A stretch of 11,431 nucleotides of DNA, taken from the UHGV virus genome UHGV-1944538; one strand, 5' to 3'. Source of the stretch: a virus. Below are positions 36-11,431 of this stretch, in pieces. The position numbers and the translations under genes were made by a program. The notes beneath the pieces were generated by a model. It ran no database searches and was not told the origin of the DNA. It saw nothing but the letters and a program-made list of their open reading frames with translations. Numbering within the stretch: the first letter of the stretch is position 1; every line of letters begins with the position of its first letter.

Positions 36-68
36 ATGGCTAAAGTTCTGGTGCTTTTACATAGCTAA
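36..68 (+). pseudogene. wrbA: 5' stub of wrbA left at attL: native start codon and first 22 nt of wrbA fused to element DNA, reading MAKVLVLLHS-stop
   Basis: 36-57 atggctaaagttctggtgcttt equals the start of the wrbA ORF whose continuation (ttattattccatgtacgg...) is found at 11321 onward; after position 57 the sequence diverges and an in-frame TAA follows at 66-68. Confidence 0.7.
51..57. repeat. attL core GTGCTTT (shared between wrbA and element)
   Basis: Left junction matches native wrbA through position 57; identical 7-mer at the right junction. Confidence 0.6.
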
Positions 69-368
69 ACACGTACATTCAACTACCTGTTAAAAACAGG
101 ACAATATCAGGTGAATCTCTATGCAATTTAAAGGCATTTCCCCAAGTATCTAAGCAGTTTTACACAGATTCTATGCAGTATCGGTATAGTCCCTTTTTAT
201 CCTAACTTATTGAAATATATAGAGAATCTGTGAAGTCTCTTTTCAGGGTAAACTGTATCGTGTTAGTCGTCCCTCTCTCGACTCCTAGAAAAGTGCTATA
301 TACAGGACTATATGACGCTATTCATGCAGTTGGTCACATGGTGTAACTATCAAACCCTTAACGATTTC

Positions 369-476
369 CTACGTGAAAGTTAGGAGTTGATGGTTATAGT
401 TCCTTCGTAGTTCCTCTTAAAAAATCACTTACAGACATCTTAATCTCTATACAGATTTCACGTAGAACACGCTTAA
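369..476 (+). repeat. Diverged third copy of the inverted-repeat element: arms CTACGTGAAA (369-378) and TTTCACGTAG (456-465), followed by CACGCTTAA (468-476)
   Basis: Arms and 3' tail identical to the 70-bp repeats at 6514 and 8659, but the spacer between arms is 77 nt instead of 38. Confidence 0.5.
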
Positions 477-993
477 TGCGTAAAAGAGTCATTATGTTAA
501 AAACGCACTGTATACGTATCAGTACTGATTTATAAGGGTTTTGTTTATTTGAAGATAAGAGGCTATACAGCACCTTGAGAGCATGTCTTGTAAGTCATTG
601 ACATATAAGGTCACAGAAGTTTGTGTCTGTTACAGAGAAAACTGGACAGGACTTCACAGAGCTATAAAATGTTACAGCTATTGATAGGTGAAATCTTCTT
701 GATAGATGCTTTGAAGTGTGGTGAAGGTTTCTTGATGTGGAGTTAACAGATGCTATGAAGAAAGTCAATAGTTGGTTATAGATATTTTAACTGCTTTTGC
801 AAAGGGGGTGCTATATCGTGAATCTGGGGTACTTAACAGCCATCAATTGAGTGTAGATATTTTTTAAGATTATCGGTGAAGGGGAATGTAGAGGGAGTGC
901 TACGATTTTTATAAAAAAATTAGAAGATGAAAAATCACTGTATAAACTTTAATCAGACCTATCGACAAGTTTATGTCAGGTCTTTATTAACTA

Positions 994-1518
994 TCAGCTA
1001 AAATTCCTGTATCCATATTTACCATGCAATTCCAGTGATGCAGCATCATAGGCTTTTGCAGCTTCTTCTGCTGTATTAAACTGACCCAGATAATGAGATT
1101 TTCCATTACAGCGTATTGTAGCCCAGAACCCCTTGTTATCCACTCTTGGGTGTACTCCCTTGTAACCTGATTTTGTTTTCTTTCTGGGTATCATGTTTGC
1201 CTGATTCTGCTCTTTGGTAACCTCTCGAAGATTGCTAATAGCATTATTTAGCGGGTCACCATCTATATGGTCAATCCATAGTTTAGCTTGTTTACCATGA
1301 TATAGATAGAAAATAACCTGATGCACCTTAAGTATTCTGAACTTACCATTAATCCGACAACCAAAAGCCAGATATTGTCTTGGTTTAGGATTTACAAGTG
1401 AACCCTCGATTTTTACACCTTTTCTAAATAATGTTCCAGATTCAAAATCTGCTGTAATATTTTCATTGATGTATCTTATAACTTCTTCAGGCCATGCCTT
1501 GGTATACCTAGTCACCAT
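994..1518 (-). CDS. HNH-AP2 family homing endonuclease (N-terminal NUMOD4/HNH_3-like domain plus C-terminal AP2 DNA-binding domain)
   Basis: 174-aa ORF. HNH-type motif WIDHIDGDPLNNAISNLREVTKEQN; AP2-type C-terminus GYKGVHPRVDNKGFWATIRCNGKSHYLGQFNTAEEAAKAYDAASLELHGKYGYRNF. AAGGA about 7 nt upstream of ATG on the minus strand. Confidence 0.85.
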   Translation of the reverse strand: MVTRYTKAWPEEVIRYINENITADFESGTLFRKGVKIEGSLVNPKPRQYLAFGCRINGKFRILKVHQVIFYLYHGKQAKLWIDHIDGDPLNNAISNLREVTKEQNQANMIPRKKTKSGYKGVHPRVDNKGFWATIRCNGKSHYLGQFNTAEEAAKAYDAASLELHGKYGYRNFS

Positions 1519-1576
1519 AATATTCCTTATTTCAATTAACTTGTTGAGGTAATACTACCAAGAAACTTCATATCAT

Positions 1577-1604
1577 ATTTTAGATAATGATTGATATACA
1601 TCAA
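1577..1604 (-). promoter_or_regulatory. Candidate sigma70-type promoter for the HNH-AP2 gene (minus strand TTGATG-N16-TAAAAT)
   Basis: Reverse complement of 1599-1604 is TTGATG and of 1577-1582 is TAAAAT, 16-nt spacer, about 60 nt upstream of the start at 1518. Confidence 0.3.
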
Positions 1605-2369
1605 AAAACTATTAAGTTCTCGGAAGAAGACTATATAGATTAATGATGCTCTTATTGTAGGAGCATCTATTCCCAACAAGGGAACTACACAGAAACTAGA
1701 GAATATGCTCTGTAACACCTTCACAGTATCTATATCAGGTCAGATTCAGAGGTCTTGATAGAATCTTCAAAGGTACTTGACAGATAACTATGAAGTTGCT
1801 AGGAAGGGATGTTTAACGGGAGGAAAGATACGATATAACCCGAAGGGAGAGTATCATCTTAACAATTATTCTTAAGAGATACCTTGAAAAGACACTTAAC
1901 AGAACCACCAAGAAGAGAGGGAACGATAAGACCCAGAGGTAGTGACCTGTTAAACAGTTCGTTTCAAAGCTCTTAAGAGTCTGTTAAGTAGGGTCATGTG
2001 ACAATCTTACCATTTTGTCAATGCTTTTGTCTTTGACCTAAATCAATAAAATGTATCGTTTGATATGTTTTTAAACAAAATAGTTAAAAATCTTTTTAGA
2101 GGTGCGCTTCGCTTGTGTCACCAATATCATTCTTCCCTGTCTAAGAGGGAAGTTACAGGGCATTTCAAAGCCCTCAATAGGCAAACCGAGGAATACGGAA
2201 AACCGAGGGAAGAAAACTATTGTGATTACCTTGAACAAGGTCTGTAAAGGTCGTTTAAGAGGTCGGTTAAGAAAGGAGCTTCCCTCTCTGGGGTTATCGC
2301 TCTTCTCTCGATTAGTGGATTGATTAAGAAGACCTCTGAAGTTTCTCTGTGAAGGTGCTGAACAGCTAT

Positions 2370-2423
2370 TATATATGGCTAATTACAACTTATTGAAAAA
2401 TAAACATTTTTAGAAATTACTGT
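2370..2423 (+). repeat. 54-bp direct repeat, copy A (TATATATGG..ATTACAACTTATTGAAAAATAA..TTTTAGAAATTACTGT)
   Basis: Aligns without gaps to 2465-2518 at a constant 95-bp offset with about 5 mismatches. Confidence 0.7.
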
Positions 2424-2464
2424 TAAGGTTGCAGAGTTGTCTGTGAAGAGACTTGTCAGTTCTC

Positions 2465-2518
2465 TATATATGGGTGATTACAACTTATTGAAAAATAAGA
2501 ACTTTTAGAAATTACTGT
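2465..2518 (+). repeat. 54-bp direct repeat, copy B
   Basis: See copy A; both lie in the ORF-poor 1725-3111 region. Confidence 0.7.
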
Positions 2519-2827
2519 CAGAGAGGTGAATACTTGATAGATACAGCTTTCCGGTTCTGTCAAGCTATTTTTTAATAGATAGCACAAAGTGCTAAAGACA
2601 CCCCTATACCATCTCGTACAGGGGGTTTTGGAGGGATTAACGGGGGTCTGTATGGTCGTTATCCTTAAGGTCAAGCGTCCATGTACGACCGAACAGTCTA
2701 AAGACAACAAGCACCCTGACGAGGACGTAGCGAAGTAACAGACCTGCGAACAGACCCACACCTCCACCAGCCCACAAATCAGGTGACCCCAATTCCTGAG
2801 GGAGATTTACCATTAAATTTCCTTGTA

Positions 2828-2925
2828 AGACGCTCTCAATCGCATTCTGACACAAAAAAGTACCTGACCTTATAGTTGACCTGAAGAGGACGTTTAACTC
2901 GTTACAGAGCGATTGAAGAGGTCTG
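2828..2925 (+). repeat. Inverted-repeat-bounded unit I (98 bp): 5' block AGACGCTCTCAATCGCATTCT..CAAAAAA, variable middle, 3' block ..CTCGTTACAGAGCGATTGAAGAGGTCTG
   Basis: 5' and 3' blocks are conserved with unit II at 4468-4588; CTCAATCGC (2835-2843) is the reverse complement of GCGATTGAG-type sequence at 2909-2917, with an extended imperfect inverted repeat of about 16 bp. Confidence 0.7.
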
Positions 2926-3031
2926 CGTGCAATGCAATAACCATGTGACCAAATACATGGCCACGCCTTTATATTTTACTCTCCCCATAGGACCATTATA
3001 CCACAGATGTTAATAAAATGTTAAAAAATAC

Positions 3032-3060
3032 TTGACATTAGCCTTTGAAACTGCTAGTAT
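3032..3060 (+). promoter_or_regulatory. Candidate sigma70-type promoter TTGACA-N17-TAGTAT upstream of the 3112 operon
   Basis: TTGACA at 3032-3037, 17-nt spacer, TAGTAT at 3055-3060, followed by TGTATATATGAGTTAACAGA; about 50 nt upstream of ATG 3112. Confidence 0.45.
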
Positions 3061-3111
3061 TGTATATATGAGTTAACAGAATAATAACATCTTATGAGGG
3101 TCAGAATATGA

Positions 3112-3666
3112 ATGAGAGATGCAGAATTTAGAGCGATGCTTCAAGCATCAAGGGAACGTAACAGACACAACGGTTACAGCTACACAGACACCCCCACCAG
3201 CTACGAAGTCCCAGCCTTTACCAAATCCGAACGTAAAAACATTGAAGCGGTCATTCGTAGCATTACGCCACGAGACAGATATATGCCAACCAGAAAGAGC
3301 ACGAAGAATAGCTTGAAACCTTTCCTGATGAGCTTTGATTCTTACGAGCAATTACCATCAAAAATTGAAGATGTAATTATCGGTACTTGTCGCAGTCTTG
3401 GAAGGGATAATTATCACCGGAAAGTTTTCTATTTACTGCGAAGTCTTGATGAGATTAGTTCAGGCGCAATAACAAATTATCTTCAGCGACAAGCAACCAG
3501 ACTTAGCTACGAATTACCGTCTGATGGGTATTGCGCTAATTTAAGTACCATTTGCAGTAAAGTTATCGAGACAATCAATCATCATGTTGAGGTTGGTAAT
3601 ATCAACCTTACGACAAGTGAGCCAGACTTTGAATTTGACGTATACGCACAAGCAGAGGAATTTTAA
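3112..3666 (+). CDS. Hypothetical protein, 184 aa, acidic C-terminus; first gene of a four-gene coupled operon
   Basis: Long ORF downstream of the promoter-like site; GAGGG upstream of the start; stop 3664-3666 sits 1 nt before the next start codon. Confidence 0.7.
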   Translation: MRDAEFRAMLQASRERNRHNGYSYTDTPTSYEVPAFTKSERKNIEAVIRSITPRDRYMPTRKSTKNSLKPFLMSFDSYEQLPSKIEDVIIGTCRSLGRDNYHRKVFYLLRSLDEISSGAITNYLQRQATRLSYELPSDGYCANLSTICSKVIETINHHVEVGNINLTTSEPDFEFDVYAQAEEF

Positions 3667-3667
3667 A

Positions 3668-3955
3668 ATGAAAAACAAACACACTTTAACCCGTATTACA
3701 AAGACAGCCTTTGACGAACTTAACCGAATCAAAAACATTACAGGTCTGCCACACTCAGCAGTGATGAAGCTTGCAATTAACCGTGATATTAACGAACAGG
3801 ATTTGCTTAATAGTCGCTTAGAGGCTGCAAGACACCATATCAGGATTAAGCAAGATGACCTTGATAGTCTGAAATCTTTAAATGTTTTTGGACTGGATTT
3901 AGCAAGGTTACTAAGTATCAAAATTCACAAGTTAGCGGATAAATTGGGGGTTTAA
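3668..3955 (+). CDS. Hypothetical small protein, 95 aa (start placed at the ATG with an RBS, not at the track's upstream ATG 3584)
   Basis: GAGGA at 3655-3659, 8 nt before ATG 3668; the track start at 3584 lies inside the preceding gene. Confidence 0.65.
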   Translation: MKNKHTLTRITKTAFDELNRIKNITGLPHSAVMKLAINRDINEQDLLNSRLEAARHHIRIKQDDLDSLKSLNVFGLDLARLLSIKIHKLADKLGV

Positions 3956-4170
3956 TGCTATGCGTTACCTTTGAATATCACACGGATAAAATGATTCGCT
4001 ACATCTCCGACCTCCTGATTGAAGGAAACGGATTCGGTGACATCCACAACTCAAAAGATATTTTCATTAAAGCCATTGGCCCAAATGAAGTACTGAAAGC
4101 AGCAGTCAAGCCAGAATGGTTTGAGCGTCACAAGATTGAATTAGGTTATTGGGGTGAGGAGGTTTTATGA
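3955..4170 (+). CDS. Hypothetical small protein, 71 aa
   Basis: Start overlaps the upstream stop (TAATG at 3953-3957); GGGGG just upstream. Confidence 0.6.
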   Translation: MLCVTFEYHTDKMIRYISDLLIEGNGFGDIHNSKDIFIKAIGPNEVLKAAVKPEWFERHKIELGYWGEEVL

Positions 4171-4454
4171 AACCTTGGCATGAAGATGTTAGACGATATT
4201 TTACAGAACACCTTATCTATGATGAATCCAGTGATTCCCTGTGCTGGTCTGATGGAGAGTCAGTCACGATAAATACCGACGACTACGGCAACAAAACATT
4301 TAATATAGGCCGATATACTTTCTACGTGAAATATGTTGTCTGGTTCCTTTATCATGGCTATCAATCCAATAAGCAAATTATCCATCTAAATGGTAACAGA
4401 GCCGATACCAGACCAAAAAATCTTATGCAAGTCCGAGACTTTAAGAGAAATTAG
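4167..4454 (+). CDS. Truncated HNH_3-like protein, 95 aa, paralogous to the N-terminal half of the HNH-AP2 endonuclease but lacking the AP2 domain
   Basis: ATGA overlap with the upstream stop; GAGGAGG RBS. WHEDVRRYFTEHLIYDESSDSLCWS and YVVWFLYHGYQSNKQIIHLNGNRADTRPKNL parallel WPEEVIRYINENITADFESGTLFRK and HQVIFYLYHGKQAKLWIDHIDGDPLNNAISNL in the 994-1518 product. Confidence 0.65.
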   Translation: MKPWHEDVRRYFTEHLIYDESSDSLCWSDGESVTINTDDYGNKTFNIGRYTFYVKYVVWFLYHGYQSNKQIIHLNGNRADTRPKNLMQVRDFKRN

Positions 4455-4467
4455 AAAAACAGCTTCT

Positions 4468-4588
4468 CAGACGCTCTCAATCGCATTCTAACGCAAAAAA
4501 CTATCTTATTTTAGGGTGGGTAATACCACTGTACAGACTACCCCTGAAAAAGACTGTTTAGCTCGTTACAGAGCGATTGAGGAGGTCT
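4468..4588 (+). repeat. Inverted-repeat-bounded unit II (121 bp), homolog of unit I with a longer variable middle
   Basis: 5' block 4468-4500 and 3' block 4551-4588 nearly identical to unit I; it fills the gap between the 4454 stop and the RBS of the 4611 gene. Confidence 0.7.
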
Positions 4589-4610
4589 GGTAAAAAGGAG
4601 ATTTTAAGAA

Positions 4611-4940
4611 ATGAGAGAATTAAACTTCCCGCTACAGATTTTCGTTGATAGCGACACTGCTATGATGGTGCAAAGCTTCACTGATGCAGGTATTAGCATT
4701 GACTTTGACAGGCTGTTAAAGCTAATGGCTGAGAACTCAGAAGCAATTGAAGATTTTATTCAGGAAATTGAAACTGGTGACCCACGTTTTATGTTTCCCG
4801 TTACCGACTCAAACATGAAGCGCCTTATTATTGAGGAAACTAACCGATACAGCGTTAGCCCTGAAAAATATCTCAAGGCGGCTATAGTAATTTTGTACGC
4901 TGACAATGTTTTGGTTACGGATTCGAAGGTGGTGCATTAA
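4611..4940 (+). CDS. Hypothetical protein, 109 aa, acidic
   Basis: AAGGAG at 4595-4600 upstream of ATG 4611; clean ORF. Confidence 0.65.
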   Translation: MRELNFPLQIFVDSDTAMMVQSFTDAGISIDFDRLLKLMAENSEAIEDFIQEIETGDPRFMFPVTDSNMKRLIIEETNRYSVSPEKYLKAAIVILYADNVLVTDSKVVH

Positions 4941-5017
4941 TGGGCTTAATAATTGCTTGGACAGCTTTGGGTTTATTTGTTGGTTGCTGGGTAGGTAACA
5001 CAGTAAATAAGAATTGA
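4940..5017 (+). CDS. Candidate 25-aa single-helix hydrophobic peptide (MGLIIAWTALGLFVGCWVGNTVNKN), translationally coupled to the upstream gene
   Basis: ATG overlaps the upstream TAA; AAGGTGG at 4926-4932, 7 nt before the ATG. Not in the ORF track because of its size. Confidence 0.35.
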   Translation: MGLIIAWTALGLFVGCWVGNTVNKN

Positions 5018-5041
5018 TGTTACCAATCTGTTAAAAAGCTG

Positions 5042-5070
5042 TTGACAAATAACCTTGAGCATGACATAAT
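5042..5070 (+). promoter_or_regulatory. Candidate sigma70-type promoter TTGACA-N17-CATAAT
   Basis: TTGACA 5042-5047, 17-nt spacer, CATAAT 5065-5070, followed by TGTATATATAGG as at the 3032 promoter. Confidence 0.45.
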
Positions 5071-5076
5071 TGTATA

Positions 5077-5268
5077 TATAGGAAGAGCAATTTTTCCTAA
5101 AATCATATTTTCAATAATCCGATGGATGGATATTCTGAGTTGGAAAGGTGCAATGCTTTTCGTCATGGCCTTTCAGTTTAGTCTGAGAGGCTATCTCAAA
5201 AAGTCTTTGTTCATTCATTATTGAACCCTTACAGCTTTGCCCTAATCATGAGTTAGGGCGTTTTCTTT
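5077..5268 (+). ncRNA. Candidate small RNA of about 190 nt between promoter 5042-5070 and the intrinsic terminator at 5239-5268; could instead encode a small hydrophobic peptide
   Basis: Promoter and terminator bracket a region with no RBS-preceded ORF; the track ORF 5042-5224 begins at the -35 hexamer itself. An internal 23-codon frame (5152-5223, MLFVMAFQFSLRGYLKKSLFIHY) lacks a good RBS. Confidence 0.3.
5239..5268 (+). terminator. Rho-independent terminator: stem GCCCTAA/TTAGGGC, 7-nt loop, then GTTTTCTTT
   Basis: Perfect 7-bp stem at 5239-5245 and 5253-5259 followed by a T-rich tract. Confidence 0.5.
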
Positions 5269-5337
5269 AAGAGTTTTAAACAGAGCTTTTAAAGAAAGTT
5301 TTTCCTGAAACTTCGTTAACGTTATAAGCAAACCTCC

Positions 5338-5370
5338 AAAGCCCTTCACAGAAACGTTTAGGGCTTTTCT
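5338..5370 (+). terminator. Second, weaker terminator-like hairpin: AAGCCCT ... AGGGCTT then TTCTT
   Basis: 7-bp stem with a 14-nt loop and a T-rich tail; shares the GCCCT..TTAGGGC..TTT pattern with the 5239 hairpin. Confidence 0.3.
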
Positions 5371-5468
5371 TAATAGAGCATCTTTAATAAATCGTTAAGT
5401 CATCTTCTAAGTGTATTGGCGTTGAAGGTGCTCTATTAAGAAATAAACCACACTTAGAGGAAGTTATA

Positions 5469-6179
5469 ATGACAAACGATTTATATATTAACGGTAAAAA
5501 GGTTGATAGCTTCGGTGACTGGTCGCCACAGACTGAACATCCAGCTATCGCTATTCAGCGTCAAGAGCATGACAAGCGCATTGAGCTTGAGCAAGAGCTA
5601 AAGATGTCACCAAAAACAACCATCTTTGTGTCTCCTGAGCCTCAAGAGATGCCTGATATTTGCAAGAGTGAAGCATTATTTAATCTTGAGCGTGAATATT
5701 ACCCACTGCTAAAAGAACAGCGCCTTAGATTAGATGACGCTTACGACAATGTGAAGAACTTTGAAGAGACTGAAAAGCCAACTGATTTTGATATTGAAGT
5801 GGAAATTAGACAAAACCCATTCGTATATTACTCAGTTGAGGATAATGATGGTTTTGGTACAGCAAGAGAGAATATCTCAAAAGTTCTTCAAAACATCCCT
5901 GAAGGATTCCGTTTAATTGATGTCAGACCAGCTTCACGCGGTACAGGTTCATATATTTTACTGTCTGATAAAACAGATGAAGAGATTTGTCAGTTAGCTG
6001 AAAAGAATCTACTTGAGCGTCATAGCAAAAAATTAAACAGATTTAAGCAAGAGCTTGCTAACCAGCTTAGAGCTATGAAGCAACTAATCAGTGACTATGA
6101 AACGCAGAAGAAGGTTGCTATGCAAGCCGATATTGAGCAGCTTACGAAGATTTCTCAGAAATATAGCAAGGCACTTTAA
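5469..6179 (+). CDS. Hypothetical protein, 236 aa, acidic with a predicted coiled-coil C-terminal third
   Basis: GAGGAAG 6 nt upstream of the ATG; long clean ORF; the C-terminus has a heptad-like charged pattern. Confidence 0.7.
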   Translation: MTNDLYINGKKVDSFGDWSPQTEHPAIAIQRQEHDKRIELEQELKMSPKTTIFVSPEPQEMPDICKSEALFNLEREYYPLLKEQRLRLDDAYDNVKNFEETEKPTDFDIEVEIRQNPFVYYSVEDNDGFGTARENISKVLQNIPEGFRLIDVRPASRGTGSYILLSDKTDEEICQLAEKNLLERHSKKLNRFKQELANQLRAMKQLISDYETQKKVAMQADIEQLTKISQKYSKAL

Positions 6180-6201
6180 CTATGAATTAAAGAGGTGATT
6201 A

Positions 6202-6411
6202 ATGTTTGAAGAACGTTTAGAGACTATTCGGTCTGTTTGTGAAAACTTAAAGTTACAAAATAAGCCAACCTTAAGAATTAAAAACAAACGTCAAGTTATC
6301 ACCTCACACAAACCAAAAACACGCAAGATTCCAAAATGGTGTATTGACCGTATCCCTTCTGATGCTCAAATCATAGGTGAAACGGAATTACATTATCTTG
6401 TCAGGCATTAA
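6202..6411 (+). CDS. Hypothetical small basic protein, 69 aa
   Basis: AAGAGGTGA RBS 5 nt upstream; Lys/Arg-rich; followed by a terminator-like hairpin. Confidence 0.6.
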   Translation: MFEERLETIRSVCENLKLQNKPTLRIKNKRQVITSHKPKTRKIPKWCIDRIPSDAQIIGETELHYLVRH

Positions 6412-6463
6412 AAAAAAAGAATTGGTTGGGTGTATGAGATAGGTTCTATCGAATCTATAACAC

Positions 6464-6506
6464 GGGGAGAGATTATCGATATTATTCGGTAGTTTCTCCC
6501 TTTTTT
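6464..6506 (+). terminator. Terminator-like hairpin (GGGAGA ... TCTCCC) followed by TTTTTT
   Basis: 6-bp G/C-rich stem at 6465-6470 and 6495-6500 with a long loop containing ATCGAT, then T6 at 6501-6506, immediately before repeat copy 1. Confidence 0.45.
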
Positions 6507-6513
6507 GTATGTG

Positions 6514-6583
6514 TGCTACGTGAAATCTTCTGAACAGATATACCCACCAAAAATTATTTTTTACGTAGCTCACGCTTAACAGA
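6514..6583 (+). repeat. 70-bp direct repeat, copy 1, containing an 11-bp inverted repeat (GCTACGTGAAA ... TTTTACGTAGC, one mismatch) and a CACGCTTAACAGA tail; lies immediately upstream of the 6599 gene
   Basis: 67 of 70 identity with 8659-8728. Confidence 0.8.
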
Positions 6584-6598
6584 GGTGAAATATGAACA

Positions 6599-8647
6599 AT
6601 GGCACAATTTAAAGTTGATAGTTTTATCGTTGAGCTAGGCTTCAGCGAGAACGTTATTAAGGGCTTGCAAAGAGTTGAAAAGGCAGCTTTGCAGTCAGCA
6701 CAAAGAATTGAACGTAATTTGAATAGAGCGTTTAAGGTCGATACCAAGCAATTTGACAGCAATCTGACAAGTTCTTTGAAGTCAATGGAAGGAAAAATTA
6801 ATAAGACCTTTGACCGTCTGGAAGCTAGAGCAAAAAATACTAAAGCTTTCCAGTTTACCACCAGATTTAATGACACTGTTAATCCTCCAAAACAACCGAG
6901 ACAGCCACGAATTAGCGGAAACAGAGCAATCACAGCAGCTTATTCAGCTAATATGACCAAGCTGAAAGGTCTTAACCCAATTGTCGAGAAATACATTAAG
7001 AGCCAGTTTTACGCATTAAGTAGTAAAGCTGGTCAGATGGATAACACCAAGTTTAATGAAGCCCTTGCTAAACTAAATTCAAGTGTAAGAGAAGCAATCA
7101 CTAAAGCCAGAGGTCATACATCCACCAGCATTAACGGTGACAGAGCAGCTAATAGTCTTGATAGTTTGAGTTCAGCAGCAGTTAAAACAGCAGGTGCATT
7201 TATCAGCTTTCAAGCTGTACTATCCGCTTATCAGCGAGTAATGGAAGTTGGCCTTCAACGTGCATCATCGGAAAGAAGTATTGATTTCGTATTTGATAAA
7301 GATGCAGGCCAAGTAAAAGAGTTCACAAAGTCATTAGCTCAAACAACGGGTTTAGATATCGCTGAACTGCAATCACAGTTTGCTGGTTTTGGTGCTTCAG
7401 CTAAAGAGTCTATGGGTATTCAAGGTTCTGAAGAACTTTTTAAAAGTATGATTGGCTATTCTCGTTTAATGGGTCGAAGTGAAGAAGAGATTAAGCGAGC
7501 ACTGACAGCATTATCACAGATGGCTGGTAAGGGTCAGATTATGGCTGAAGAGCTTAAGGGGCAATTAGCTGAAGCTGTTCCTGGTATGGTTCAGGTATTC
7601 GCTAAAGCAACCGGAAAGACTGAACAGGAATTATTTGATGCCATGAAGAAGGGGGCTTTAAAATCTGCCGATACTCTTCAGAAGGTCACTCAGGAACTGA
7701 ATAGACAAATCACCGCTAAAGGTGGCTGGAAAGCTATTTCAGAAAGTACACAGGCACAGCTAGGGAACCTGAAAAACTCTTGGAATACCACGCTTGATAG
7801 TATCTTCAGAGGTTCTGAAAATGGTCTGCAAGATTTCACACGAAGCCTAACAACGCTTTTAAACGCTCTTGGTGGAAGTGGTAAAACATTAGGTGAAAGT
7901 TTTGGTAGCTTGATGAGCGATATGTCACATGGTGTCGATAACCTGACTGATATTAGTTACAGGGTAAGGGCGTTCTTTGACGAGGTGACATTGGCTTATC
8001 GTGGTTTAACCGATGAACAAAAGAAAGTTGTTGATGCTTTAGGTTCTGGCTTGATTAATAGTTTAAAAGTCTTGGCTGGTGTTATTGCTGTGAATAAAGT
8101 TGTTGGTGTAACCAGAAGTATTTACGGGCTTATGACTGCTATCACAAGATTAGGTCAGGTCGCTGATACTACAGTGGATAACGTGAATAGAAAGAACGGG
8201 AAACCATCAAGGTTTAATCTTGGGAATATGCTATTAGCTGGTAGTGCTATCTATGCAGGTTATGAGAGATTAGCTTCTACGCCTGAACGAATGGAAGCAC
8301 AAGCTAAATTACCAGAGCTGGCTAAAGAGTCTGGACTTAAGCCAGTATTTACTATGGACGATGTGAAAGGTTGGTTTAATAGTGCAGCTATGAATCTTGC
8401 TAACTTCCAGCATCCAGAATTAATCACCATGAGACAAGATGCGGCATTAACGAATACGGATATCCAAAGCCTGAGAGATGAAATTAGTGCTTTGAGCAAA
8501 CGTATTCAGGAGCCTGTGAAAGTTTCACTTGGTGGTGAAGTTGCCATTAAACCAGATGAAACCAGCTTTATGACCTTTAGCAGTAATATCTACGACCAAT
8601 ACGCAGAAGCTACGCTATTAAGTTCATCATTCCCAGAAGATGATTGA
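6599..8647 (+). CDS. 682-aa protein with a tape-measure-type domain (central GKGQIMAEELKGQLAEAVPGMVQVFAKATGKTEQELFDAMKKGALKSADTLQKVTQEL segment) and a coiled-coil-rich N-terminus
   Basis: Long ORF; the central segment resembles, from memory, the conserved domain of siphovirus/lambdoid tape measure proteins. GAGGTG lies 11 nt upstream of the ATG. Domain assignment not verified by search. Confidence 0.75.
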   Translation: MAQFKVDSFIVELGFSENVIKGLQRVEKAALQSAQRIERNLNRAFKVDTKQFDSNLTSSLKSMEGKINKTFDRLEARAKNTKAFQFTTRFNDTVNPPKQPRQPRISGNRAITAAYSANMTKLKGLNPIVEKYIKSQFYALSSKAGQMDNTKFNEALAKLNSSVREAITKARGHTSTSINGDRAANSLDSLSSAAVKTAGAFISFQAVLSAYQRVMEVGLQRASSERSIDFVFDKDAGQVKEFTKSLAQTTGLDIAELQSQFAGFGASAKESMGIQGSEELFKSMIGYSRLMGRSEEEIKRALTALSQMAGKGQIMAEELKGQLAEAVPGMVQVFAKATGKTEQELFDAMKKGALKSADTLQKVTQELNRQITAKGGWKAISESTQAQLGNLKNSWNTTLDSIFRGSENGLQDFTRSLTTLLNALGGSGKTLGESFGSLMSDMSHGVDNLTDISYRVRAFFDEVTLAYRGLTDEQKKVVDALGSGLINSLKVLAGVIAVNKVVGVTRSIYGLMTAITRLGQVADTTVDNVNRKNGKPSRFNLGNMLLAGSAIYAGYERLASTPERMEAQAKLPELAKESGLKPVFTMDDVKGWFNSAAMNLANFQHPELITMRQDAALTNTDIQSLRDEISALSKRIQEPVKVSLGGEVAIKPDETSFMTFSSNIYDQYAEATLLSSSFPEDD

Positions 8648-8658
8648 TAATAGTCGAA

Positions 8659-8728
8659 TGCTACGTGAAATCTCCTGAACGGATATACCCACCAAAAATT
8701 ATTTTTCACGTAGCTCACGCTTAACAGA
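8659..8728 (+). repeat. 70-bp direct repeat, copy 2 (perfect 11-bp inverted arms GCTACGTGAAA / TTTCACGTAGC), immediately after the 6599-8647 gene and upstream of the 8805 gene
   Basis: Near-identical to 6514-6583; the two copies bracket the tape-measure-like gene. Confidence 0.8.
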
Positions 8729-8804
8729 TAAAACACTTATATATCAAAGGCTTGGTTAAAAATGATTAAAATACACTAAGCCTTTGAAATCAAAGGAGAA
8801 TTTA

Positions 8805-9578
8805 ATGATTTACACTAATCAGCTTCGTTACACTGGCAAAGATGGCGTTTACTTCCACTTAAGAGATAATGTAGATGCCTTCTTAACTTTATCAGCAACT
8901 GAAAATATGGAATTTGACAGCCCTATGCAGGTAACTACACAGAACATGCAATCAGGGCAAACCGTCACAGATAATGTGCAAAGAGCACCCAGAACAATCA
9001 CTATTAGCGGTGTCGTTGTAGTTGGCTATGAAGGAAGCTTATTATTAACTCGTCAGGGTCAATTAGTAGAAAACTTCATTGACACTCTTGAAAGCTGGAG
9101 AGACCAGAAGCAAATTATTTCGGTCATCTGTAAAGACGGTATCAAAATTGATGATTCCATTATTACGAGTTTTAAAGCCTCTAAAGATGTTGGTATTTCA
9201 AATGGTCTAAGAGTCCAGCTAACTTTTCAGGAAATTAACTTTAAAGCTATTGTGGGTCAGACTGATATTTCATCTGCGACTGGAAAAGCCGCGACTACTA
9301 ATGATGGTGGTGCTACCAGTAAAAAGAATGCGGGTAACGTGACTACTGAACGCAATAACGCACCTATGTTGCTGTGTCAGGAACTGTACAGCTACTCAGC
9401 ATCTGAGCTATCTGATGAAGCGTTAAAAGCCCGTAGTAATTGCTCTAAAAATGTCACGGTGAAAGATGGTGTAAGCACCTTCTCAGATGCCGCTAATGCG
9501 CAAGCTTCAAAAGTGCTTAAGTCGGGTAATGCTTTACGGAAGTTTAGTGTGAATCCGAATAAGAAGGGCACTTATTGA
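8805..9578 (+). CDS. Hypothetical protein, 257 aa, with a Ser/Thr/Asn/Gly-rich linker ([30 protein letters not shown]); positionally a possible tail-module partner of the upstream gene
   Basis: AGGAG at 8794-8798, 6 nt before ATG 8805; the track's earlier start at 8784 is a TTG without an RBS. No confident domain assignment. Confidence 0.65.
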
Positions 9579-9594
9579 TTGGTAACAATACCAA
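9577..9594. other. Hairpin (ATTGGTA-ACAA-TACCAAT) in the 19-bp gap between convergent genes; possible bidirectional terminator
   Basis: Perfect 7-bp inverted repeat between the stop codons at 9576-9578 (plus) and 9598-9600 (minus); A/T-rich, so weak. Confidence 0.25.
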
Positions 9595-9597
9595 TTC

Positions 9598-11241
9598 CTA
9601 AGCGTCCACCTCTTCCATATCACCAGCAGGATAAATCCTTGTTACTGGTTCACCAAAAATAAGCATATCATCTAGTGACTGCATCTCATCGGTTGCTTCT
9701 TCAAGCGTTAAGGTGTGGTCATCTTTACCATCAAGAGGGAAACCACGAATCATATTTCCATTGTGAAGATATATATCAACCAGCTTTTCATTACCAGAAA
9801 CAACAATCTCTTTCACCAGACGCTTAATGATAATCTGGGCTTCAGTTCTCCCCTCTACAGACTCCATATCAAGACCGCTTAAATCCAAGCTTGATACAGA
9901 TTTTACCCTCGCCTTTTCTCGTGATAACTGAACTATCAGTTCATCTTTTTCTTCCTGCTTAATCCGTAGTGCTTCTTGAATCTGAGTGATGTTAGGAAGC
10001 TGTATCAGCGTCTCAGTGAGTTTTTCCAGTTCACTATCAACGGTGTTTAGTCTGCGTTGTAGCTCATCTAATTTAGCTGTGTCAGTAGCTTCATCGTGTA
10101 GCTGTGACAGTTTGCTGAACAGACGACTACAAAGCTGTGTATCAAGTAACTTTCTGGACACTGTACCGTAGCTACAACGGGACTCCTTATTACCATTGCA
10201 ACGGTAAGTACCTTGATAAACGGGTTTACGTATCCCTGTAGGAGTCATTACAAGCCCACACTTACAACGGATAAGCCCCTTCAGTATGTTCACATATAGC
10301 CAGTGTTCACCGCTGGATGTTTTCCCCTTCCCTGTTTCCTCTAACAGTTGCTGTACAGCGTAAAACTTAGAGTCTGTGACAATCTGAGGATAGAACCCTT
10401 CAATTTCTTCACGTAACACTGTTTTACGGTCTTCTGTAGAAATCTTAGCGGGAAGGTAACCTAATACACTTCGTGAAGTCAGGATGTGTTTAACGCTTAA
10501 TGCTGACCAGTTGCCATCCGGTTTCTTAGTCTTGGATATTCTGACCTTACGCTGATTAATGGTCGGGTAACCTTGTTCGTTTAGCCATTTGCAGATAGCA
10601 AACATCGACATACCAGAAAGACGCTTGTCATAGATGATATTCACCAGTGACGCTTTATCTTCATCAACGATGTAGTGTGAACCGTCTTCTGATAGCTCTA
10701 ACCATCCGGGGGCTTGCTTACCCATAGGCTTCTTAAGTTCTCTTGCAAGCTGTGTTTTATGGTTCCAGACCTGAGCTATACGCTTTTGCTTAACAAGAGA
10801 TTCTTGGTGTGCTCGCTCAGCTATGATGATGTGCTTAATCAACTTCACAGGGTCTGTTAATGCTGATTTGTCGTAGAGTTCACCATCTCCCAGAGTCAGT
10901 ATAGAGACCCCTTTCCTCAGTATCTGCCTGACATCATCTATAGCTGTGTCGATATCAGCCCTACTGAAGCGGTCAAAGTTCTCTACAACAATCAAGGAAC
11001 CTTCTGGAATAGCCTCAGACATAACATTTTCAAACATACGTCTGAAGTCAGAACCTTGATTCTTATGTTGCTGGTGAAAACCAGATTTACCCTTATCAAC
11101 ATATCTGTGAGCAGGAAGAAGGTAATAATCGTTTTTGTGCTTAGAGTAGAAAGCATCAATGAGGTTTGTTTGCCGTCTTAAGGAGTCTCCTGAGTCTTGC
11201 TCTTTAGTACTCCACCTGATGTATGTCACTAGCAGCTTCAT
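9598..11241 (-). CDS. int: Large serine recombinase (serine integrase) of the element
   Basis: 547 aa. N-terminal resolvase-type motif YIRWSTKEQ with a candidate nucleophile Ser; Cys-rich zinc-ribbon-like segment [11 protein letters not shown]...[14 protein letters not shown]; C-terminal coiled coil. Located next to attR and read inward. Confidence 0.9.
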
Positions 11242-11292
11242 ATCTTCGGACTATGCTTATCTAAGTGGTTCATTGAACAGGAGAACAATGAT

Positions 11293-11431
11293 ATGAGTGT
11301 TAAGGCAAGAATACTAGTGCTTTATTATTCCATGTACGGACATATTGAAACGATGGCACGCGCAGTTGCTGAGGGTGCAAGCAAAGTCGATGGCGCAGAA
11401 GTTGTCGTTAAGCGTGTACCGGAAACCATGC
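11293..11431 (+). CDS. wrbA: wrbA, NAD(P)H:quinone oxidoreductase, 5' part with element-supplied start ([46 protein letters not shown]); partial, runs off the window
   Basis: From 11317 the sequence and translation match the WrbA N-terminus as I remember it (native [43 protein letters not shown]); AGGAG at 11279-11283 upstream of the new ATG. Confidence 0.85.
11317..11323. repeat. attR core GTGCTTT
   Basis: Identical to 51-57; wrbA identity resumes exactly here. Confidence 0.6.

Follow-up and report, generated by a model that had tools for sequence, protein, structure and literature searches.

What is an island that combines two tail genes of a virulent phage, a recombinase and a set of genes without a recognised family doing in a bacterial chromosome? 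This question is raised by virus genome UHGV-1944538, a stretch of DNA of 11,431 nucleotides (hereafter the window, meaning the whole of it) in which chromosomal DNA of Escherichia coli flanks an integrative element at positions 58-11316. The best relative of the window is strain ES5 (91.6% identity), which carries the same island between ymdF and wrbA. Among the genes of the element are counterparts of two tail parts of virulent Felix-O1-like myoviruses (Ounavirinae), a tape measure protein (TMP) and a tube initiator. We therefore propose that the element is probably a satellite of these phages, a phage-parasitic island working much like PLE does on phage ICP1 in Vibrio. An initial annotation, made from the letters of the window, had seen in it a hitchhiker and not a prophage, transposon or integrative and conjugative element, and our findings support that view through the helper-clade tail genes, the excised circles, the architecture recurring at several sites and the purifying selection described below.

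Two tail genes related to those of Felix-O1-like phages

The initial annotation had counted one tail-type gene; there are in fact two, both on the + strand:

6599..8647, + strand, TMP of 682 amino acids (aa); PF20155, phrog_4036; homologue of Bas63 gp17 (PDB 9ndy_F, E 6e-68)
8805..9578, + strand, tube initiator (Dit-like) of 257 aa; PF21821, phrog_3721; homologue of Bas63 gp18 (PDB 9ndy_A, E 5e-122)

Chain 9ndy_A of PDB entry 9NDY is the 'tube initiator protein gp018' of phage Bas63 (JohannRWettstein, genus Felixounavirus), and the genes for gp17 and gp18 are adjacent in these phages. Residues 5-185 of the element's tube initiator are almost identical to gp18, and its C-terminal ~70 residues have diverged except for the last dozen. 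At the DNA level, positions 8834-9338 (505 bp) are 93.5% identical to Bas63 and up to 94.9% identical to other members of the group, and they match 212 phage records, nearly all of them Felixounavirus. An identity of 93-95% over 505 bp indicates that the exchange with the phage was recent. Across the element's relatives, the N-domain of the tube initiator falls into two classes, one ~92-95% and the other ~80-83% identical to Bas63, which points to repeated exchange with phages, some of them perhaps unsampled; the second class hints at either an unsampled helper lineage or an older resident allele.

The TMP is only ~30% identical to the phage TMP overall, and is therefore an old resident gene rather than a recent capture. 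Its residues 1-45 are nonetheless ~80% identical to the phage protein, and the DNA around its start (6598-6733) is 76-82% identical to Ounavirinae. At 682 aa it is 60 aa shorter than Bas63 gp17 (742 aa), and the other alleles of the family span 679-725 aa. The last ten residues, LLSSS[FY]PE[DE][DE], are kept in every allele aligned, with LLSSS[FY]PE invariant.

In the Bas63 virion, a hexamer of the tube initiator adapts the threefold hub to the sixfold tube and nucleates the tube; the protein combines a tube-like fold with a C-terminal extension of ~100 residues across the baseplate, and the last 25 residues of the TMP lie against the hub and the puncturing protein (PMC12609058). The regions that the element has kept are residues 1-45 of the TMP, its last 10 residues (inside the 25-residue hub-contact stretch) and the tube-like N-domain of the tube initiator. 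By alignment, both proteins thus keep the regions that correspond to the contact surfaces of the phage parts and have diverged elsewhere. The same pattern also fits the main rival to a satellite, a mobile island for defence against phages that would spread by means other than transduction, and whose TMP and tube initiator would be dominant-negative or decoy subunits poisoning Ounavirinae tail assembly. Most of this mechanism would be common with that of a satellite; we regard it as unlikely on the evidence that we weigh below.

Further observations connect the element to the same phages. The initial annotation remarked on its AT-richness, which is borne out by a GC content of 39.0%, against 51.3% in the host flanks; Bas63 likewise has 39.0%. 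The hosts of phages with a homologue of the tube initiator are of the same genera (E. coli, Shigella, Salmonella, Citrobacter) as those with homologues of o236, the hallmark gene of the element's family. Felixounavirus and related Ounavirinae, virulent myoviruses of ~87 kb, are therefore our candidate helper clade. Taken together, the alignments show that DNA passes between Felix-O1-like phages and the element, which copies their tail core.

Integration into wrbA and excision as a circle

The boundaries of the element, its recombinase and the disrupted host gene are as follows:

36..57, + strand, native wrbA start and first 7 codons (ATG GCT AAA GTT CTG GTG CTT T; MAKVLVL) on the host side of attL; a sequence reading, with the wrbA/ymdF context taken from ES5
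58..11316, no strand, element-specific DNA of the integrative island, 11,266 bp including one core copy, from reading of the junctions
9598..11241, - strand, large serine recombinase (integrase) of 547 aa with Resolvase PF00239, Recombinase PF07508 and Zn_ribbon_recom PF13408 domains, adjoining attR
11293..11323, + strand, element-supplied wrbA start and N-terminus (ATG at 11293), by which the wrbA reading frame is restored; includes the attR core

The 7-bp crossover core GTGCTTT occurs twice, at 51-57 (attL) and at 11317-11323 (attR), and the coordinates 58-11316 named in the initial annotation are therefore exactly those of the element-specific DNA, with foreign sequence from base 58 on. The integration point is codon 7 within the wrbA coding sequence, and the large serine recombinase performed the integration at the 7-bp core in that codon. 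In ES5, the PGAP annotation calls wrbA intact beside the recombinase. The gene is left intact with a replacement N-terminus, but its transcription probably starts from element DNA.

The attP predicted from the two junctions, …ACTAGTGCTTT|TACATAGC…, is present in four metagenome contigs: L010 and, from a search of JGI/ENA metagenome contigs for the junction, L020, L021 and L022. L010, a contig of 11,210 bp with an o236 homologue, has an exact end overlap of 111 nt, so that its circular length is 11,099 bp. Over the recombinase region it matches window 9598-11323 at 97.3% identity (97% for the recombinase gene). This region continues directly into the homologue of window 48-362, and the junction between them, …AATACTAGTGCTTT|TACATAGCTAAACACG…, is exactly the attP predicted from attL and attR. 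L020 (11,233 bp) has a terminal overlap of 55 nt, giving a circle of 11,178 bp. Both contigs are circular because their ends overlap, and the attP junction is also present in L022, a contig of 3.7 kb. The element thus excises cleanly and occurs in nature as a circle of 11.1-11.2 kb with an exact attP. With three recombinase domains, identical attL and attR cores and attP in excised circles, it has the features of a serine-recombinase integrative element. A scan of the window yielded no tRNA or tmRNA gene, so the element is not tRNA-targeting.

A separate observation concerns L021 (OOBX01000469.1; 23,009 bp, of which 6 kb were examined), which has an internal attP and ~2x the unit length of the element. 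It could be a head-to-tail dimer or concatemer.

A common family with conserved tail genes

Relatives of segment 2800-6450 occur in 522 of 5426 complete E. coli genomes, mostly at 80-90% identity and with at most three copies per genome; all of them are chromosomal and never on a plasmid. The same syntenic architecture is found at three sites, namely wrbA (the window and ES5), the DUF72 gene yecE (YJ1) and the yciI-tonB interval (TW11681). The serine recombinases differ between sites, those at the other sites being 29-37% identical to that of the window, and in YJ1 yecE remains as a pseudogene fragment. TMP and tube initiator are present in all 10 relatives for which the region was available, in constant order and behind copies of the promoter-like module D1 (described below). 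The other genes of the element are:

994..1518, - strand, free-standing HNH_3 + AP2 homing endonuclease, accessory; Pfam and PHROG matches
2637..2813, - strand, 58-aa open reading frame (ORF) with one hydrophobic stretch; called by PGAP in ES5 and TW11681; ratio of nonsynonymous to synonymous substitution (dN/dS) 0.15-0.24
3112..3666, + strand, o184, all-helical protein; AlphaFold2 pLDDT 73.8; dN/dS 0.20-0.30
3668..3955, + strand, o96, small protein; no match in PDB profile searches
3955..4454, + strand, accessory cassette of o71 (3955-4170) and an HNH_3 ORF lacking AP2 (4167-4454; HNH_3 at E 1.8e-8)
4611..4940, + strand, o109, core family gene; dN/dS 0.14-0.30
5469..6179, + strand, o236, family hallmark gene of 236 aa; AlphaFold2 pLDDT 75.6, long helices and a small alpha/beta domain
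6202..6411, + strand, o69, core family gene, from the ORF list and family comparison

The order common to the family begins on the left with a non-coding arm, an optional HNH-AP2 gene, a non-coding region, the leftward membrane ORF (the 58-aa ORF), o184 and o96. It continues with an optional o71/HNH cassette, o109, o236, o69 and a terminator, and ends on the right with D1, TMP, D1, tube initiator and the leftward recombinase gene. o109 was detected in 10 of 11 loci, and the eleventh (L017) begins too near o236 to include it. ES5 and YJ1 carry the o71/HNH cassette at 93-99% identity, and TW11681 lacks it.

Across members, dN/dS is 0.08-0.45 for o184, o109, o236, TMP, tube initiator and the membrane ORF, and 0.08-0.37 for the two tail genes. 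All tested genes are under purifying selection, which argues against a remnant. These data also bear on the possibility that the element has an unrelated function and acquired its two tail genes by recombination, during abortive infection or homing-driven exchange, keeping them as passengers. The recent phage exchange seen over the 505 bp and the presence of homing endonucleases would fit such a capture. However, passengers would hardly be retained in 10 of 10 relatives, in the same order and with the same D1 modules, under a dN/dS of 0.08-0.37, nor would a TMP that is an old resident be expected among them; we therefore consider this explanation quite improbable.

Alleles are shuffled among members: o96, for example, is 99% identical in one relative and 60% identical in another. 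The HNH-AP2 endonuclease stands out in being 98-99% identical at the protein level among members that otherwise differ by 10-40%. It is absent from two members (L010 and L018), and the alignment of L020 leaves window 362-1685 unmatched; the ~190 bp adjoining the gene (1519-1700) are invariant between members. The near-identical gene, its invariant flank and its absence from some members together suggest an active homing endonuclease with co-conversion of its flank, and therefore that different elements meet in one cell. The initial annotation had placed this gene in a family typical of virulent low-GC phages. As a clue to the identity of the helper the gene does not hold up, because its best phage matches are just ~40% identical and lie in T4-like and Klebsiella phages (against 38.7% to Bas63 gp46), and because some members lack it.

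Apart from these patterns, the copy in YJ1 (L007) has its TMP split by IS2 and its recombinase by ISEc12 (14670-16309 and 17255-21213), so that it is inactivated and fixed in place. Near-identical matches at similar positions in several genomes (H105-H111) suggest clonal spread of this copy.

A full-text literature search found no paper that links a satellite to Felixounavirus or describes this element family, which is apparently undescribed so far. The initial annotation had not recognised the element as a member of any described family either. The markers of P4-like elements, phage-inducible chromosomal islands (PICIs), capsid-forming PICIs (cf-PICIs) and the satellites of Barth et al. (2023) were absent.

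Genes without a recognised family

We searched the ORFs against the Pfam, PHROGs, NCBIfam and PADLOC profile libraries, which recognise only five genes: the recombinase, the HNH_3 + AP2 endonuclease, the HNH_3-only ORF, the TMP and the Dit-like protein. o184, o96, o71, o109, o236, o69 and the 58-aa ORF have no family. This agrees with the initial annotation on the large serine recombinase and the HNH-AP2 endonuclease (both by Pfam domains), on the short operons of small ORFs outside recognised families (from the ORF list), and on the lack, at the sensitivity tried with these four libraries, of a recognisable capsid, portal, terminase, lysis, replication or conjugation gene. The homology searches that it had proposed as a check revealed no standard replication or packaging module, either with profiles or, for o236 and o184, with AlphaFold2 and Foldseek.

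More specific searches gave the same picture. Besides TMP and tube initiator, no capsid, portal, terminase, sheath, tube or fibre match was found with Pfam, PHROGs, tblastn or profiles against Bas63. A concatenated query of six family-less ORFs (the 58-aa ORF left out) had one marginal match only in a tblastn search of 50,697 phage records, and when profiles of eight ORF families of the element (the 58-aa ORF among them) were run against all Bas63 ORFs, the HNH ORFs alone matched. RepA_N or other initiator families had no match at E≤0.1 in Pfam and NCBIfam, and no element ORF matched the chaperone Pfam families or Bas63 gp15, the Phage_TAC_15 chaperone of the phage. As is general for satellites, the element is without a virion gene set of its own yet carries two helper-virion-type genes, TMP and tube initiator.

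These searches also bear on whether the island is a decaying temperate-phage remnant. Its recombinase and tail genes superficially resemble a prophage end, and PGAP annotations read that way. Against this, the tail genes match strictly virulent phages of ~87 kb, the same compact 11-kb architecture recurs at several sites, purifying selection acts on the genes, the element excises cleanly as a circle, and the other ORFs yield only the single marginal tblastn match among phage records; nor did Pfam, PHROGs or tblastn detect prophage modules (capsid, terminase, lysis, replication) or recognisable remnants of them. A decaying prophage is accordingly the least probable of the explanations considered here, and a very improbable one.

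For individual genes, AlphaFold2 gave models of moderate confidence for o236 and o184 that had nothing at E≤0.001 in a Foldseek search of the PDB, and PDB profile searches with o96 and o109 had no match. Homologues of o236 fall into 3097 clusters at the 90% identity level and come from E. coli, Shigella, Salmonella and Citrobacter; among 50%-identity cluster representatives there are only 20 matches. Thousands of database entries label this protein a 'transposase'. No Pfam or NCBIfam model and no fold match supports that assignment, and the label looks like a propagated annotation error. For o96, matches to DndE and to the P27 small terminase were weak and far below the cut-off; to judge from the pattern of its sequence (HTLTRI…, HIRI…), the protein may be a DNA binder of the tandem ribbon-helix-helix type. 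Homology of o96 to Bas63 gp48 was considered and rejected, as the profile match (E 0.0027 against 451 ORFs) shrinks to a 20-residue match in BLASTP. The hydrophobic stretch of the 58-aa ORF, which lies downstream of a leftward promoter-like site, is by eye probably a transmembrane helix.

Non-coding DNA and regulatory modules

Large parts of the element are non-coding, and they contain repeats and promoter-like sites:

84..951, no strand, conserved non-coding left arm rich in CTNNNNAG octamers, with two CTACGTGAAA boxes, inverted relative to each other, at 369 and 456
1519..3111, no strand, ORF-poor region conserved between members, with 54-nt direct repeats, CTGTTAAG boxes and a 60-nt phage match
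2995..3060, divergent sigma-70-like promoter pair, leftward TTAACA-N18-TATAAT and rightward TTGACA-N17-TAGTAT; from a consensus scan, invariant in four members
5042..5443, + strand, sigma-70-like promoter (5042-5070), terminator-like hairpin (5238-5260) and inverted repeat with 22-nt arms (5366-5443), ahead of o236
6464..6501, + strand, strong intrinsic terminator after o69, conserved in all relatives
6514..6583, + strand, D1 module copy 1, ~70 nt, CTACGTGAAAT-N31-TTTACGTAG-CACGCTTAACAGA, upstream of TMP
8659..8728, + strand, D1 module copy 2, ~70 nt, upstream of the tube initiator

The regulatory modules are arranged around the tail genes. D1 lies upstream of the tube initiator in 12 of 12 members and upstream of the TMP in 9 of 12, and the terminator at 6464-6501 is predicted to insulate the tail genes from the upstream operon. 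The box CTACGTGAAA occurs 7 times against 0.71 expected, a count that none of 200 shuffles reached. The repeated promoter-like modules noted in the initial annotation are therefore real and non-random, and one copy of D1 precedes each tail gene. We considered whether the D1/CTACGTGAAA boxes are phage promoters and rejected this, as they are absent from Bas63, and by inspection the early promoter/5'-leader consensus of Bas63 was not seen upstream of element genes. The absence of the box from Bas63 leads us to infer that a factor encoded by the element reads it, for which o96 is a candidate by its sequence. Further left lies the divergent promoter pair, with its leftward promoter directed at the 58-aa membrane ORF and its rightward one at the o184 operon.

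The left arm (84-951) is 81-94% identical in relatives that have other recombinases, and its small ORFs carry stops in those relatives. The octamer CTNNNNAG occurs 15 times in 58-993 (4.6±2.0 expected) and 31 times in 1519-3111 (7.9±2.6 expected); its excess is about two-fold in coding regions, with none in the recombinase gene. Region 1519-3111 also holds 54-nt direct repeats at 2370-2423 and 2465-2518, 95 bp apart, with a partial third copy at 204-219; TW11681 holds one repeat unit only. This arrangement is iteron-like and could mark an origin, and by its sequence the region as a whole is a candidate origin or regulatory array. Known RNA families leave the non-coding regions unexplained, since an Rfam scan of the window at E≤1 gave no match.

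A comparable texture is found in the phage. An ORF-free region of 1.66 kb in Bas63 (70492-72155) has 60 octamers of the CTNNNNAG type against 11.0±2.9 expected, including CTTGTTAG and TGTTAAGA nine times each and CTGTTAAG six times. In the window, CTGTTAAG occurs 6 times against 0.58 expected, with one copy just upstream of each tail gene, and in Bas63 6 of the 19 copies lie within 400 bp of the non-coding region. In addition, a 60-nt stretch of the element (1896-1953) is 83% identical to phage non-coding DNA at 71232-71288. The [CT]TGTTA[AG] sequence was rejected as an iteron common to both, being clustered strongly in the phage non-coding region and not in the element; what the two have in common is limited to the CTGTTAAG octamer and the broader CTNNNNAG texture. 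We treat this resemblance as a lead and not as a finding; one possibility is that the Bas63 array serves as an origin or binds proteins, and that the element imitates it.

As a side observation, a module of ~100 nt is duplicated at 82-94% identity (2822-2925 and 4463-4589), one copy lying where the membrane ORF begins, before the o184 promoter, and the other between the HNH_3-only ORF and o109. The duplication may be a by-product of the insertion of the o71/HNH cassette.

A proposed satellite mechanism and its alternatives

We propose the following sequence of events for a satellite of Felix-O1-like phages. Infection by the helper would trigger excision of the element, possibly with a phage protein as excision factor, as in PLE. 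The excised circle would then be amplified by phage functions, possibly through the CTNNNNAG-rich non-coding arms that resemble the 1.66-kb non-coding region of the phage. TMP and tube initiator would be expressed from the element's own insulated D1 promoters and would take the place of gp17 and gp18 at the hub of the phage. The resulting chimeric tails, ~9-10 nm shorter, could favour element particles and/or lower phage yield. The core proteins o109, o236, o69, o184 and o96 might serve in sensing, regulation and possibly a change of capsid size or the redirection of packaging. By analogy with PLE, then, the element is expected to be induced by Felix-O1-like phages, packaged in their capsids and equipped with chimeric tails, at the expense of phage yield.

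Several observations weigh against this proposal. The second class of tube initiator (in L008, L010, L013 and L016) is at most 82% identical to any sequenced phage. The D1/CTACGTGAAA motif is missing from the Bas63 genome, so that there is no visible link between phage promoters and the expression of the tail genes. The attP junction was found in no IMG/VR contig, and the relatives in that database lie in contigs of 13.6-50 kb with identifiers in the style of isolate genomes, for which reason they look integrated rather than virion-derived. The circular form demonstrates excision, not packaging. Neither the profile and Foldseek searches nor the comparison with Bas63 recognised an initiator of replication, a small terminase, a factor for capsid size or a tail assembly chaperone.

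The absence of a packaging or capsid function in the profile, tblastn and Foldseek searches also fits the defence island introduced above, as does the fact that interference with tail assembly is a known defence strategy, used by Tai systems (PMC11364771) and by the Rta of PLE11. Yet PADLOC identified no defence system in the element (only a generic homing-endonuclease model and a sub-threshold ZorA), and poisoning alone fails to explain why full-length, correctly terminated TMP alleles (679-725 aa) are conserved. Allele mosaicism and the 98-99% identical homing endonuclease moreover imply frequent co-residence of different elements, which transduction would supply, and circular forms are abundant enough to assemble, in four metagenome contigs. 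We therefore favour a satellite of Felix-O1-like phages over a defence island.

Beyond the element itself, we put forward a wider proposal more tentatively and with somewhat less confidence than in the satellite as such: that a common, undescribed family (~10% of complete E. coli genomes) parasitises Felix-O1-like phages by swapping in its TMP and tube initiator, that ~2.4 kb of conserved non-coding DNA mimics the CTNNNNAG-rich region of the phage to capture its replication, regulation or packaging, and that o236, o109, o69 and o184 represent new mechanisms of helper sensing or of capsid or packaging redirection.

Implications

To our knowledge, no satellite of a strictly virulent phage other than PLE, with ICP1 in Vibrio, has been characterised by experiment. 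If our proposal is true, the element would provide a second such system, with E. coli K-12-compatible genetics, helpers already available in BASEL and, for the helper Bas63, a solved virion, and it is this prospect of a tractable E. coli counterpart to PLE/ICP1 that gives the locus its high interest. General rules would become testable, including those for satellite-built chimeric tails, for amplification and packaging without a recognisable replicon or packaging gene, and for the counter-moves of the phage. Felixounaviruses are isolated against Salmonella and Shiga toxin-producing E. coli, including for food biocontrol. If a widespread chromosomal island targets them, this could account for resistance that differs between strains, and the island would be worth screening for in the choice of phages and production hosts. 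The analysis also corrects a widespread annotation error, by which the hallmark gene is labelled 'transposase' and the element annotated as phage debris, and it extends the attachment sites of serine recombinases by wrbA, yecE and the yciI-tonB interval.

Comparison with known satellites and defence systems

P4 is about 11.6 kb in size. The element is similar to it in this respect, in being integrative in E. coli and, if our proposal is true, in the use of a virion from a myovirus (the helper P2 in the case of P4). The helical o236 is also similar in size to the P4 external scaffold Sid, a resemblance only. In contrast, P4 has a tyrosine integrase, the alpha primase-helicase, Sid, Psu and Delta, no tail genes and a temperate helper, and the P4 marker families had no match in the element in Pfam and PHROGs. 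The markers of PICIs and cf-PICIs (tyrosine integrase, alpA, pri-rep, small terminase or capsid module) similarly had no match in Pfam, PHROGs and NCBIfam. Tai and the Rta of PLE11 act on phage tail assembly, as the element may, and are likewise carried on mobile elements; as far as the available descriptions go, they are small inhibitor proteins, whereas the element encodes full structural homologues of tail parts.

Closer to the element are 224 putative E. coli satellites with a TMP and a baseplate gene, for which Barth et al. (2023; PMC10055350) propose lytic coliphages as partners. As described there, these too are chromosomal islands of E. coli that encode a TMP and a baseplate component and are missing most tail genes, and a subset has a serine recombinase. 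Unlike the element, those satellites are described as encoding a major capsid protein, a decoration protein and RepA_N, none of which was found in the element with Pfam, PHROGs or NCBIfam. They also mostly have tyrosine integrases at tRNA genes, neither of which was found in the element; one example is 13.5 kb long. Their partners belong to a different coliphage group.

PLE remains the nearest comparison, and differs in several ways. The likeness to it is one of described features; no RepA_N initiator and no tail assembly chaperone was detected in the element in the searches above; the second tail protein of the element is a gp18-like tube initiator, whereas that of PLE is a hub protein (BhuB); the element is 11.3 kb long and has Enterobacteriaceae hosts; and PLE has been shown to be induced, to replicate, to form small capsids and to be transduced, whereas for the element such steps are proposals. 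Because no initiator was recognised, no chaperone was found and the likeness is by description, we state that the element may work like PLE, not that it is PLE. With this qualification, the likenesses are extensive. Both are compact islands with a large serine recombinase (a generic feature and not evidence of homology), with nuclease genes related to homing endonucleases and with large non-coding stretches, and both are linked to a virulent myovirus rather than a temperate phage, ICP1 in the case of PLE. Signs of recent DNA exchange with the phage are seen in both: PLE capR is >70% identical to ICP1 over 300 bp (PMC10055350). Finally, both have a shorter TMP of their own and a component of the baseplate core, with other structural genes missing. 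The analogy with PLE drawn in the initial annotation has become more apt in this respect, since PLEs were shown in 2025 to encode their own, shorter TMP, a chaperone and the baseplate hub BhuB, which are built into chimeric tails 10 nm shorter than those of the phage (PMC11838301).

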